From assembly GCA_039630055.1 (NCBI GenBank), contig JBCNVN010000017.1, positions 1 to 30,027 on the forward strand: DNA of 30,027 nucleotides. The letters run 5' to 3'. The notes under the pieces are model-generated. The model was not told where the DNA came from. It worked only from the letters and a program-made list of their open reading frames with translations, and did no database searches. Origin of the DNA: Candidatus Caldarchaeales archaeon (lineage in GTDB: Archaea > Thermoproteota > Nitrososphaeria_A > Caldarchaeales > Wolframiiraptoraceae). Both the position numbers and the translations under genes were made by a program. Of the stretch, positions 9,176 through 30,027 are shown one piece after another. Position 1 is the first letter of the stretch. Each line of letters starts with the position of its first letter.

Positions 9176-9270
9176 TGCTCCGGCCGGGATTTGAACCCGG
9201 GTCCCTGGCTCGAAAGGCCATTTTACGGCTCTTGGAGCCTGTATACTTGTCCGGGCTATACTACCGGAGC
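9176..9270 (-). tRNA. tRNA-Glu(TTC) with 20-nt intron at position 27/28 (9221-9240)
   Basis: Acceptor GCTCCGG/CCGGAGC. Removing AGGCTCCAAGAGCCGTAAAA gives anticodon arm CTGGC-CTTTCGA-GCCAG. T-arm CCGGG-TTCAAAT-CCCGG. Confidence 0.93.
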
Positions 9271-12731: not shown

Positions 12732-12827
12732 TGGGCCGGGCCGGATTCGAACCGGCGACCTCCGCCGCATCCCCGCCGATATATTCTTGCTGTCAGGGCG
12801 GCGTCATAGCCGCTAGACTACCGGCCC
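12732..12827 (-). tRNA. tRNA-Val(GAC) with 23-nt anticodon-loop intron (~12768-12790)
   Basis: Acceptor GGGCCGG/CCGGCCC, Val-type D-arm GTCTAGCGGCTATGAC, anticodon arm CCGCC-CTGACA[intron]C-GGCGG, T-arm GCCGG-TTCGAAT-CCGGC. Confidence 0.88.
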
Positions 12828-28244: not shown

Positions 28245-28357
28245 GCTTCCTGCTGAAGCTATCGCCAAGAAGAGAAACAGCATATAGCCATTAGACTACG
28301 AGTACTGAAGAAATTTGCTAAGAGAACTAATACGCCTTCTAAACAGGTTTAGAGGCT

Positions 28358-29374: not shown

Positions 29375-29519
29375 CCCCTCCTCCCATAAAGCATACCAAT
29401 GTAAAAAAGCTGGAAAACGCACTTTCCACAGAAAACAGCCTAATCAAACCTTTCTCAAGACGATAAAAGAGAGCAGACTATATAAACATCAACCCAACAC
29501 CATAAGATAGAAGATAAAA

Positions 29520-30027
29520 TGAGTCTACGACATAGAGAGAACATAGTCGTAGATGATGTAGGAGCTACTCCCCATCCAGAGAAATCTGGATCCAGCCATG
29601 ATAGGCTGGCGGCGGGAAGAAAGCTGGACGCCCATAGCCCCAAGATGCTACCATAGGGGGAGAACGGTGGATGGGAGGGGTAGAAGGTCCCAGCACAAAA
29701 GATAAAGATGGTCTCAGAAGCCTCTGGTAAGGCTTGCCGCAACCCCATGAAACCCCTCAAACATGCCTGAGACAAGGGCATCCCGGGGGAAACATCATCA
29801 TCCCCGGGGGAGGGGTTGGGGGCCTACAGAGATGAGGCTTGAAAGCCTCCGAGGCGTGCTGGAGGCCGGGGGAGGCGGTTGCCTGGGGCTTCCGTCTCCG
29901 TCGAGGTTGCCTGGGGCGGCCTCGACTCCTCCAGCATACTTTGAGAGATGCTTGGGGCTTCTCTCAGGGGAAGACTGTTTCCAGTGTTATGCCTGGGGCA
30001 TCTCTGGAGGCGGTCAGCCTCGAACCA
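29520..30027 (+). ncRNA. Putative large structured non-coding RNA, may continue beyond the window
   Basis: Abrupt GC enrichment, more than 10 consecutive hairpins, purine-rich loops (GAAA), multiple G-U pairs only on the + strand, no credible ORF. Confidence 0.65.
29880..30000 (+). repeat. Four copies of TGCYTGGGGC, each capping a hairpin
   Basis: Copies at 29880-29889, 29908-29917, 29949-29958 and 29990-29999. Confidence 0.85.

Follow-up and report, generated by a model that had tools for sequence, protein, structure and literature searches.

Near the end of the window, the 30,027-nucleotide stretch of Caldarchaeales DNA analysed here, four hairpins with unrelated stems and a common tip are closed into a single domain. 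The locus raises the question of what kind of molecule this domain belongs to and what its four tips may be for.

Fold and strand of the four-hairpin domain

The elements discussed below are listed with their coordinates in the window, strand, description and basis.

29519-29700, + strand: 5' module, a hairpin at 29525-29557 followed by GAUGAUGUAGGAGC and more hairpins (second copy, related modules)
29712-29849, + strand: domain D1, assigned to the same RNA as D2, beginning at a conserved GGUCUC and containing hairpins (alignments, GC content)
29809-29823, + strand: 5' strand of a long-range helix, GGAGGGGUUGGGGGC, whose partner GCCCCCAAC... lies past the cargo ORF, outside the window (duplex scan)
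29850-30022, + strand: D2, closed multibranch four-hairpin domain of the proposed large RNA (fold, CM R1, covariation)
29850-29855, + strand: 5' strand of the closing helix, CGAGGC, with its partner GCCTCG at 30017-30022 (sequence, fold)
29856-29865, + strand: 5' strand of the 10-bp helix GTGCTGGAGG/CCTCCAGCAT (also written GUGCUGGAGG/CCUCCAGCAU), with its 3' strand at 29928-29937 (encloses h1 and h2)
29871-29899, + strand: hairpin h1, tip GCCUGGGGC (fold, tip motif scan, covariation)
29900-29926, + strand: hairpin h2, 12 bp including two G-U pairs, tip GCCUGGGGC (fold, covariation)
29942-29966, + strand: hairpin h3, tip GCUUGGGGC (fold, homologue alignment)
29973-30015, + strand: hairpin h4, tip GCCUGGGGC (fold, homologue alignment; two helices)

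The helices and hairpins of D2 were first described in the original prediction. All of them were present at these positions, and RNAfold returned the same multibranch fold, which was the minimum free energy (MFE) structure as well as the centroid. The MFE of the + strand was -110.1 kcal/mol, compared with -76.6 ± 4.1 kcal/mol for dinucleotide shuffles (n = 200, z = -8.15), and none of the 200 shuffles folded as well as D2; the - strand folded to -81.4 kcal/mol. The G-U pairs of D2 were retained on the + strand, and one of them was invariant in 11 of 11 sequences. Since each such pair would be an A-C mismatch on the opposite strand, they favour a folded + strand over a duplex-DNA repeat, and the folded strand is most simply read as a transcript. 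The region also has an RNA-like composition, with a GC fraction of 0.61 over 29701-30000 against approximately 0.39 genome-wide. CM R1 scored 136.5 bits on D2 of the window.

As the original prediction had proposed, the four hairpins carry equivalent tips on different stems. The motif GCYTGGGGC occurred four times in the 30-kb window, each time at a D2 hairpin tip, whereas shuffled sequences contained 0.16 ± 0.39 occurrences and none of 100 reached four. A search of the window against Rfam 15 at the gathering score returned three tRNAs only and no match to D2. D2 adjoins the contig end (30027), and the RNA extends into contigs C37 and C20. Both overlap the window, whose final 77 nt are common to the two, and they represent two alternative continuations.

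Homologues, covariation and distribution

Eleven homologues of D2 with the same fold were found, in two genomes of the same genus and in a few hot-spring metagenomes. In the alignment of 12 sequences, from which L019 was omitted because its score was identical to that of L005, 98.2% of the 726 cells were paired. Both sides had changed in 15 of 64 pairs, compared with 4.3 ± 1.4 in shuffles, of which 0 of 500 reached 15; this count was made on an alignment fitted to the structure of the model, and several of its rows are close relatives, many near-identical, so that few independent lineages are represented. Six slid controls of the same alignment gave 0-4 such pairs. The covariation first noticed among the four stems of the window is thereby backed by covariation between homologues. 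D2 folds, is conserved and belongs to the + strand.

The changes were unevenly distributed over the domain. In the 10-bp helix, 10 of 10 pairs, one of them G-U, were invariant in the 11 of 11 sequences that covered it, and the junction strands were likewise invariant. The hairpin stems varied, with both sides changed in 7 of 11 pairs of h1 and in 4 of 9 pairs of h2. The closing helix was replaced in homologues by CGC/GCG and CGA/UCG, one pair having changed on both sides. Variable stems combined with invariant junctions and an invariant 10-bp helix are what pedestals mounted on a rigid frame would show.

The RNA was present in 3 of 76 genomes of the order and 3 of 8 of the genus, in more than one copy. 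The locus is thus multi-copy and confined to a few species of one hot-spring archaeal genus. The homologue records carry the name Candidatus Geocrenenecus, and labels of the sequencing runs give hot springs as the host habitat. Assemblies break at the RNA locus. The stretch was present in three DNA runs of one hot-spring study and in no listed RNA run, and in the DNA runs the region was represented by unitigs of 56-193 nt with variant loose ends. A pattern scan of viral contigs gave 0 matches. Three further candidates were dropped: L024, a metagenome pattern match located inside a coding sequence and without a CM match; L027, a Latescibacterota pattern match also without a CM match; and L014/G058, whose 21.5 bits were judged from its alignment to be due to chance. 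A search for the ends of the element found no empty site; G000, G002 and G005 each have a relative of the L022 upstream gene, but in none of them is the downstream gene adjacent to it.

Conservation of the tip motif

To what extent the tips are the same was evident from the 47 tips of the 12 sequences, which comprised CCUAGG (24), CCUGGG (9), CCAGGG (8), CCAAGG (4), CCGAGG (1) and CUUGGG (1). The conserved motif is CC-N-R-GG, rather than UGG. The homologues had therefore not lost the loop, which the original prediction had considered as an outcome that would speak against it, and the key positions were conserved in 46-47 of 47 tips. In particular, the first C of the loop was present in 46 tips, the sole exception being a U that can still pair with G, and the opposing G was present in all 47. 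The two middle positions varied without a partner. A conserved C and G around free middle positions fits a cross-loop C:G pair with three exposed bases, and we read the tip as a C:G-closed (pseudo-)triloop like that of an iron-responsive element (IRE), a geometry deduced from the pattern of conservation; the sequence by itself fits a triloop and a fully open loop of 5-6 nt alike. The tips of the G002/G003 type have an extra pyrimidine, read as extruded, and the 9-nt tips of the window are the same without this sixth base. The full pattern is GC-C-N-R-G-G-(Y)-GC, in which U, C or G follows GG, U or C doing so in 43 of 47 tips; GGA occurred in none.

A purely structural role was weighed against this conservation. 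The hairpins could serve as a thermostable scaffold that stabilises the leader or mRNA against heat or exonucleases, the tip being a favoured stable loop with no ligand. The hot-spring host, the GC-rich stems within an AT-rich genome and the long-range 5'-3' helix, which resembles an end-protection device, are in line with such a role. Stability leaves unexplained, however, the strict conservation of C3, G6 and G7 (46-47 of 47) on drifting stems, the invariant 10-bp helix and junction strands, and the fourfold use of an unusual tip instead of standard stable tetraloops. We consider a scaffold without a ligand rather improbable.

The near self-complementary CC-N-R-GG loops might instead kiss one another, within or between molecules, giving compaction, dimers or higher assemblies. 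Fully paired 6-nt kissing loops are known from TAR-TAR* and from ColE1 RNAI/II, and kissing loops also occur in ROOL, GOLLD and OLE assemblies and in HIV DIS. The commonest tip, CCUAGG (24/47), is a perfect palindrome and is found in both h2 and h4 in 8 of 12 sequences; CCUGGG (9/47, including three of the four window tips) is self-complementary with two G-U pairs, and the outer CC:GG pairs, at a minimum, are possible between any two tips. Several features are at odds with such docking. Thirteen of the 47 tips have A or G at position 3 (mostly A in h1), which places a mismatch in the centre of a kiss; C never occupies this position, although CCCGGG would pair best; and the middle positions of any two tips do not covary. 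Additionally, the unequal stem lengths disfavour a simple side-by-side kiss, and the window loop can close to a triloop that leaves too few bases free. RNA-RNA docking is thus unlikely, though the most probable of the rival readings.

The original prediction had also suggested that UGG in the tips pairs with the CCA end of tRNA. As UGG was found in only 10 of 47 tips (the four of the window and 6 of the other 43) and only GG was conserved (47/47), T-box-like UGG:CCA pairing is not the conserved feature. As a rival explanation, GG(Y) of the loop would capture a tRNA 3' end by pairing with C74-C75 and the discriminator base, as the T-box bulge, the P-loop of 23S rRNA and the L15 loop of RNase P RNA do; the GG-U or GG-C of 43 of the 47 tips could face an A or G discriminator. 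The likeness to the 23S P-loop noted earlier is real in the window, where h2, the only hairpin that matches the P-loop string (UGGGGCG), has 10 nt (CUGGGGCGGC) in common with the P-loop region of the genus 23S rRNA (GGCUGGGGCGGC), but it is gone in most homologue tips (CCUAGGUGC). Moreover, the base facing A76 is A or G in most tips, and 2-3 bp in a small, possibly closed loop would hold poorly in the absence of a pocket like that of the ribosome. The type of LAGLIDADG gene that the locus carries often adjoins tRNA genes; this adjacency is a DNA-level trait of the nuclease genes, seen also in genomes without the RNA. Capture of tRNA ends is, in our view, scarcely probable.

Another ribosomal partner was considered on the basis of the 16S rRNA, whose 3' end in the genus is GGAUCACCUCCU. 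By pairing with this pyrimidine-rich end, the purine-rich tips could mimic a Shine-Dalgarno sequence and recruit or sequester 30S subunits, acting as a standby site or as a ribosome sponge. AGGUG is present in 22 of 47 tips, GAGGUG in one, and the cargo ORFs use Shine-Dalgarno sequences of the GAGGUG type. The remaining 25 tips lack AGGUG, including all four of the window (UGGGGC) and nearly all of h3 (GGGCG, AGGCG), and the conserved CC and GG differ from the positions that define a Shine-Dalgarno sequence. This makes the mimic very improbable.

Three local sequence resemblances were examined and set aside. The 16S processing stem of G001 contains UGCCUGGGGCUUC, 13 nt identical to the tip region of h1, which could have pointed to rRNA processing; the G003 leader predicts another partner, G005 lacks the motif and neither follows the tip type, so the identity was treated as a coincidence. 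Mimicry of the tRNA-Pro anticodon loop (tRNA-Pro(GGG) of G000, loop region GCGCCUGGGGCGUGC) was rejected because the hairpin register gives no 7-nt CUGGGGC loop and the homologue tips are unlike an anticodon loop. A C/D-box reading of GAUGAUGUAGGA in the 5' module was rejected, there being no D box and the G002/G003 copies reading GACGACGUAGGA.

The proposed larger RNA and its downstream genes

D2 is very probably one domain of a large, GC-rich structured RNA on the + strand, with a leader of 0.7-0.8 kb (a length estimated from alignments) that contains at least three domains and is followed by ORFs. The leader starts near 29712, perhaps at 29519, and runs past the contig end. The 5' module has a second copy at the end of contig C1 (89% identity to C1:228639-228745), and related modules were found in L005, L006, L007, L009, L015 and L017, while L022 is without one; this module may be the start of the same transcript as D1 and D2.

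Downstream of the leader, in the same orientation, lie small ORFs for an acidic peptide, a membrane peptide and a protein of approximately 93 aa, and then one variable selfish gene, which encodes an HTH-LAGLIDADG protein, an IS110-like recombinase or TnpB. Directly before a T-rich tract, a post-ORF segment (GCCCCCAAC..., at approximately 1507 in C37 and 1720 in C20) pairs with the 5' domain. A duplex scan with the 24-nt 5' segment ranked the post-ORF site first in 6 of 6 full elements; with a 47-nt segment that includes an arm of a D1 hairpin, this site came first in 4 of 6. Changes on both strands of this long-range helix between copies were read from the sequences, and three G-U pairs were read by hand in the C37 copy. 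Because the post-ORF segment pairs back to the 5' domain, the cargo lies within an RNA loop. The promoter and terminator were assigned by eye only.

The cargo gene was readable in 10 of 12 loci, giving 11 genes as the window forks: eight LAGLIDADG, two TnpB and one IS110-like. LAGLIDADG_3 was matched with E-values of 1e-13 to 1e-17, and the TnpB cargo has a Cas12f1-like TNB domain (E = 1e-10). The AF2 model of the IS110-like cargo (pLDDT 89.5) matched IS621 (8wt9, E = 5e-8) and TasR. The 287-aa ORF of C37 had no match in Pfam, NCBIfam, PHROGs or PDB sequences, and its identity comes from the fold search alone. The cargo families are independent selfish genes: of the 76 genomes of the order, 44 contain one family and 24 the other (the IS110-like one), compared with 3 for the RNA. 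No candidate binding protein emerged, and no ORF was found to accompany the RNA in every copy; the acidic peptide was not found in L009, L021 or L023.

The association with mobile genes bears on whether D2 acts as single-stranded DNA, in the manner of REP-like repeats, transposon ends, single-strand origins or attC-like sites. In favour of this reading, the locus is present in several copies and linked with TnpB, IS110-like and LAGLIDADG genes, and assemblies break at it; G-T wobbles are tolerated in DNA hairpins, so that the strand asymmetry is not strict proof against ssDNA. The REP-like role raised in the original prediction does not agree with the placement of the motif, which is not dispersed in G000 or G002. 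G000 has seven GCCTGGGGC sites, of which three belong to the finding, two lie in the overlapping contig starts, one is the tRNA-Pro anticodon loop and one is coding; in G002, 6 of 7 GCCDRGGBGC sites are in two element copies. In G003, 3 of 9 such sites fall within assembled element copies. The earlier concern about a dispersed repeat tied to a transposase thus fails on dispersal, but comes close in that the locus has several copies and is linked with genes for transposases and homing nucleases. Among its neighbours, we saw neither a Y1 transposase nor a Rep or integron integrase. D2 also lies inside a covarying run of 0.7-0.8 kb that is co-oriented with the ORFs and bracketed by the ORF-spanning helix, and GC enrichment is typical of stable RNAs in thermophiles. 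An ssDNA structure is accordingly quite improbable.

Comparison with known RNAs

The RNA appears to be previously undescribed: no description was found in searches of open-access text, Rfam 15 contained no match, and searches of six element loci against Rfam down to E ≤ 5 gave nothing relevant. Housekeeping RNAs were rejected, since RNase P RNA (C56, 174 bits) and SRP RNA (C3, 151 bits) were both found elsewhere in the genome and the studied RNA is multi-copy and present in 3 of 8 genus genomes.

GOLLD, ROOL, HEARO and OLE are similar in that they span hundreds of nucleotides with several domains and strong covariation, are patchily distributed and associated with mobile DNA, and had no known function when discovered; GOLLD and ROOL are often near tRNA genes. 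In contrast, the studied RNA is archaeal, has no match to them in Rfam 15 and carries its ORFs in a loop closed by a long-range helix, in a putatively co-transcribed layout.

ORF-bearing introns (group I introns with LAGLIDADG genes, IStrons and archaeal rRNA introns) share a structured core that tolerates different selfish nuclease ORFs, and 5' and 3' parts that pair across the ORF. The studied RNA differs in the T-rich tract after its 3' strand and, as judged by eye, in having no consistent bulge-helix-bulge. The bulges at the long-range helix vary by copy (3 nt on one strand, 2x2, 2x1 or none), and a conserved splicing-endonuclease site was therefore rejected. Group I and group II introns were also rejected, as six loci gave no match at E ≤ 5 and the copies lie in different intergenic contexts with no flanking exons. 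The Rfam group I model is known to miss subtypes, so that the studied RNA may still have a remote kinship to group I introns.

A further comparison was made with TIGR arrays and IS110 bridge RNAs; one copy of the studied RNA has an IS110/TasR-like gene directly downstream. TIGR arrays and bridge RNAs are described as hairpins in tandem whose palindromic stems vary and whose small motifs are conserved, a feature shared with D2, and as having box C/D-like motifs that flank two 8-12-nt spacers per hairpin and an obligate linkage to Tas or IS110 (PMC12045711). The RNA studied here has loops of 3-6 nt, no box C/D and no pairs of 8-12-nt spacers. The linkage is also absent, LAGLIDADG or TnpB following the RNA in most copies, and this assignment was rejected.

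Two further systems display a loop motif repeatedly. The bacterial CsrB/RsmZ RNAs present the same short G-rich motif on several hairpins with unrelated stems, which is the multivalent display seen in D2. The D2 motif is CC-N-R-GG, however, compared with A(N)GGA in CsrB/RsmZ, and D2 forms part of a much larger RNA that runs on into ORFs in an archaeal host. Membership of the CsrB/RsmZ class, to which the original prediction had likened D2, was not borne out: GGA/ANGGA is absent, there is no Rfam match, and a search for CsrA (PF02599) gave matches in 0 of 3 carrier genomes (91.9-97% complete) and in 3 of 14 control genomes.

The IRE cluster in the 3' UTR of transferrin-receptor mRNA, which contains five IREs acting in cis, likewise repeats an identical small loop on differing stems. 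The IRE loop CAGUGN is a classic protein-recognition hairpin with a pseudo-triloop, and the C-N-N-N-G-N pattern in D2 fits this fold, in which C and G would pair across the loop and the final base would be extruded. IREs work in cis on their mRNA, as D2 might. The differences are in the loop (CNRGGY in D2, CAGUGN in the IRE), in the D2 stem, which is without the bulged C, and in the packing of the D2 hairpins into one closed multibranch domain, whereas IREs are spread along the UTR.

Proposed function

We favour D2 as a multivalent docking platform for a protein, which as a whole is the best explanation we have, with a chance of being correct that is slightly below even. The part of the earlier proposal that stands is the design principle, one loop motif displayed four times on differing stems; the binding of a protein is our interpretation of it.

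The docking mechanism is held a little more tentatively than the platform itself. The four hairpins would be interchangeable pedestals whose stems drift freely as long as pairing is kept, each presenting the same small tip, GC-C-N-R-G-G-(Y)-GC, with an architecture possibly equivalent to that of the IRE loop CAGUGN. D2 could then bind an RNA-binding protein of the host or the element, either as a single oligomer or in as many as four copies. Acting in cis, by analogy with the five IREs of transferrin-receptor mRNA, the bound domain might control the stability or translation of the downstream selfish genes; acting in trans, it might be a sponge as in CsrB/RsmZ.

A long shot beside this protein platform is an RNA of a selfish locus whose GG(Y) tips are docks for tRNA 3' ends like the P-loop or RNase P L15, or whose tips dock together into an RNA assembly. 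Either version, if true, would mean that the element ties up or organises a core component of translation, and the RNA would belong to a type of mobile-element RNA for which no archaeal example has been described.

Significance

To our knowledge, large multi-domain structured RNAs with no assigned function, such as OLE, GOLLD, ROOL and HEARO, are rare finds and almost only bacterial. The RNA described here appears to be an undescribed archaeal example with strong comparative support and a clear modular anatomy. Its layout is unusual in that three unrelated kinds of selfish nuclease gene are found inside the RNA loop. The narrow distribution, in one genus, limits the breadth of the finding; in another genus, related LAGLIDADG genes are preceded by GC-rich leaders, a hint that the class may be wider and more divergent. 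The fourfold display of a small loop provides a sharp, testable handle, and if its partner is found, the RNA would reveal the means by which a mobile locus of an uncultivated thermophile governs its own nucleases or manipulates a factor of the host.

Fold and conservation of the four-hairpin domain

Contig C9, the window, was one of 80 contigs in a 1.54-Mb archaeal genome bin with a GC content of approximately 0.39, and its GC content was 0.61 at positions 29701-30000. A covariance-model search placed three tRNA genes on this contig. The following genes, each 85-96 nt in length with an end-to-end match to the 71-position tRNA model, probably carry introns:

2036-2120, - strand, tRNA gene
9176-9270, - strand, tRNA gene
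12732-12827, - strand, tRNA gene

Every helix of the original prediction was located at its assigned position, and both the MFE and the centroid structures from RNAfold were exactly the closed multibranch fold proposed for positions 29850-30022. The RNAfold energy of this four-hairpin domain (D2) was -110.1 kcal/mol, compared with -76.6 ± 4.1 kcal/mol in 200 shuffles (z = -8.15), and the reverse strand folded far more weakly (-81.4 kcal/mol) because G-U pairs are used on the forward strand. A role as a single-stranded DNA structure is improbable in our estimation, and site counts in genomes, which revealed that the motif is not dispersed, argue against the REP-like repeat that had been suggested. 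In the window, GCYTGGGGC occurred at four sites, against a chance expectation of 0.16, and all four were the tips of the hairpins (h1-h4). Community contigs (loose ends from runs X1 and X2) departed into other sequence inside h1, at window positions 29875-29880; therefore, more variants of the domain exist in the same hot-spring study.

For the covariation analysis, 12 sequences, many of them close kin, were fitted to the covariance model of the domain (R1); besides the window, three came from genomes and eight from metagenomes. L019, which scores the same as L005, L024, a coding-sequence match to the pattern, and L014, judged a chance match, were left out. Standard pairs were found in 98.2% of 726 cells, and both sides had changed in 15 of the 64 pairs, compared with 4.3 ± 1.4 after shuffling (none of 500 shuffles reached 15); six slid controls gave 0-4 such changes. 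The double changes clustered in the stems of h1 (7/11 pairs) and h2 (4/9 pairs), and the covariation of stems around a common tip, noted within the window, was borne out between homologues, mainly in these two stems. The 10-bp helix GUGCUGGAGG/CCUCCAGCAU was invariant, its G-U pair included (11/11), and the junction strands of D2 showed zero variation among homologues.

Architecture and copies of the larger RNA

D2 is very probably a single domain within a much larger conserved RNA that extends beyond the contig end. Alignments revealed covarying, conserved structure on either side of D2, from which we judge the structured leader to be 0.7-0.8 kb long. Its domains, together with a separate 5' module that may be the start of the same transcript, are as follows:

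D1, starting at a conserved GGUCUC, window position 29712, + strand
D2, the four-hairpin domain, window 29850-30022, + strand, after D1 and followed by a variable linker
D3, about 250 nt with several hairpins, beyond the variable linker
Separate 5' module, window 29519-29700; C1:228639-228745; L005, about 1130-1200; L006, about 1440-1569

The first 77 nt of C37 and of C20, two further contigs of the same genome, were identical to the final 77 nt of the window; the two were similar over approximately 155 nt and divergent thereafter. The end of contig C1 carried a copy of window 29519-29623 at 89% identity, so several copies exist in this genome, with the assembly forking within them. BLAST of relatives revealed the domain in two genomes of the same genus:

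G003, one copy, L005
G002, L007 and L009, with additional partial copies in C31 and C34

In metagenome contigs, a pattern scan identified 10 loci, nine of which were confirmed by R1, and nearly all lay at contig ends.

The 5' module consists of a 9-bp hairpin with compensatory changes among copies, followed by GAYGAYGUAGGA. By eye, its loop UAGGGGUCC could pair with an upstream GGACCCC to form a pseudoknot in G001, G002 and G003. The module occurs in G001, a relative that is without the four-hairpin domain, and is not present in L022.

Rfam 15 gave no match for the RNA, either at the gathering score or at E<=5. A housekeeping RNA was rejected, as RNase P RNA and SRP RNA were located elsewhere in the same genome, and the RNA was not recognisable as a group I or group II intron and had no exon context. 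By the family criteria in PMC12045711, it is neither a TIGR stem-loop array nor a bridge RNA, since its loops are tiny and box C/D motifs are absent, and it is not linked to the IS110-like gene described below.

Cargo genes and a long-range helix

Downstream of the leader and on the same strand lie small ORFs, in varying combinations, and then one selfish gene (the cargo gene):

Short acidic peptide, ending ..LDNQWW or similar
Small membrane peptide
Protein of about 93 aa
Cargo: HTH-LAGLIDADG protein (Pfam LAGLIDADG_3, E 1e-13 to 1e-17)
Cargo: TnpB with a Cas12f1-like TNB domain (E 1e-10)
Cargo: 287-aa protein in C37 (L002:515-1378), AlphaFold model IS621/ISCro4/TasR-like

The acidic peptides (C20:480-600, C37:430-520, L018, L022) were 37-50 aa long and very acidic, many with LDNQWW or NNQRW ends; in some copies, a 48-57-aa membrane peptide and the ~93-aa protein, which has a ..MYIG end, come after the acidic peptide. 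Pfam gave no match for the L022 ~93-aa protein, the L022 membrane peptide or the C20 acidic peptide, and PHROGs gave none for the ~93-aa protein.

Sequence-family searches, Pfam among them, were without a match for the 287-aa protein of C37, and its AlphaFold (AF2) model (pLDDT 89.5) resembled the bridge-RNA recombinases IS621 and ISCro4, and TasR. The family was also found at C8:30118-30675, and a short C-terminal remnant containing stops was observed at window 28249-28356. A GC-rich, hairpin-rich sequence of approximately 150 nt lies 3' of the gene in C37 and C8 and could be its bridge RNA. This IS110-like family is multi-copy: 24 of the order's 76 genomes carry it, each with up to 22 matches; LAGLIDADG genes occur in 44/76, with up to 32. 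Both cargo families consist of independent selfish genes, present in multiple copies across the whole order.

A GCCCCCA(C)AAC..CCACC segment, followed by a T-rich tract, was found 3' of the cargo gene, and in all six full-length copies it ranked first among possible duplex partners for the 24 nt after D1. This helix comprised a perfect 15-mer match across 2.5 kb in L022 and, as read by hand, three G-U pairs in the C37 copy, and indels were matched on both strands among copies. The segment pairs back to the 5' domain, and thus the cargo genes sit within an RNA loop.

We also examined the 3' flanks of HTH-LAGLIDADG genes (L046-L053, L005, C20 and C31). The genes of the order end beside a convergent tRNA gene, within about 170 nt in 6/9 loci (ARAGORN), and at several loci a conserved motif of ~30 nt (AAATATYAAWTGCACAACYARTATATAA) separates the gene from differing tRNAs. 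This arrangement suggests that the gene is part of a selfish element targeting tRNA flanks.

Hairpin tips and their possible partner

Among 47 tips, we counted CCUAGG (24), CCUGGG (9), CCAGGG (8), CCAAGG (4), CCGAGG (1) and CUUGGG (1); therefore, the core kept is C-C-N-R-G-G within GC...GC. The predicted conservation of the tip held for this core and failed for UGG itself, which was present in just 10/47 tips, four of them in the window. Capture of tRNA CCA ends by the tips is highly improbable. In this window, CUGGGGC(GGC) does resemble the 23S P-loop, but homologues do not retain the resemblance. We also noted that AUGCCUGGGG, 14 nt past the 16S 3' end, pairs with CCCCAGGCAU in the leader of the rRNA gene to form a 16S processing stem (L065 of G001 and L066 of G007), in which UGCCUGGGGCUUC is identical to the window's h1 tip region. 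A link between the two was rejected: there was a 13-nt identity in a congener, but no tracking of tip type in G003 or G005.

The second C of the tip was present in 46/47 cases, the sole deviation being a U still able to pair with G, and the second G in 47/47; the two middle bases were variable, without a covarying partner. We read the tip as a cross-loop C:G pair closing a three-base loop (N-R-G), with an extruded pyrimidine in G002/G003-type tips that the otherwise equivalent 9-nt tips of the window would lack. Pseudo-triloop geometry is known from the IRE loop CAGUGN, and the tips, read in this way, would share it.

In the conserved, forward-strand-specific fold, four stems that are free to vary in sequence rise from an invariant frame and display the same small conserved tip, all within the large leader of a selfish-gene locus. 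The four tips would be equivalent docking sites, and we tentatively favour a protein as the partner, because the tip matches a protein-recognition hairpin type, because variation of the exposed bases breaks base-pairing models yet suits shape-plus-GG recognition, and because repeated identical hairpins are a known way for one RNA to capture proteins multivalently, either in cis, as the IRE cluster of the transferrin receptor does, or in trans, as CsrB does. Membership of the CsrB/RsmZ family itself was contradicted by the absence of the GGA motif, the lack of an Rfam match and the presence of CsrA in 0/3 genomes carrying the RNA.

Loop-to-loop kissing or self-assembly of the tips is rather doubtful: CC..GG is self-complementary and CCUAGG palindromic, but position 3 is A or G in 13/47 tips, and the tips show zero covariation with one another. 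It is unlikely that the hairpins, with their conserved tips, serve as a scaffold only. Mimicry of the Shine-Dalgarno sequence is highly improbable; AGGUG occurs in 22/47 tips and the 16S 3' end was checked and confirmed, but no tip of the window contains AGGUG.

Distribution and relationship to known RNAs

A covariance model and a 661-nt BLAST query found the RNA in just 3/76 genomes of the order, and an exact-pattern scan of all prokaryotes, with one genome per species, found only Candidatus Geocrenenecus dongiae, Candidatus Geocrenenecus huangii and one chance match. In another genus, more than 700 nt of GC 0.70-0.74 with hairpins precedes a LAGLIDADG gene (L052, G064:C9:1-760), and one portion of this leader is similar to D1 (GAGCCCCC...GCCG). 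Divergent leader RNAs may occur outside Geocrenenecus.

The RNA is real and conserved, and it appears to be undescribed so far; searches of open-access text on Geocrenenecus and on Aigarchaeota noncoding RNA and homing endonucleases showed no description of it. It can be placed, loosely, among the large ornate RNAs that accompany mobile elements. By analogy, D2 would work like known protein platforms at the level of design, while being a member of none. Its distribution is narrow, covering one genus, and the function put forward here is a proposal.
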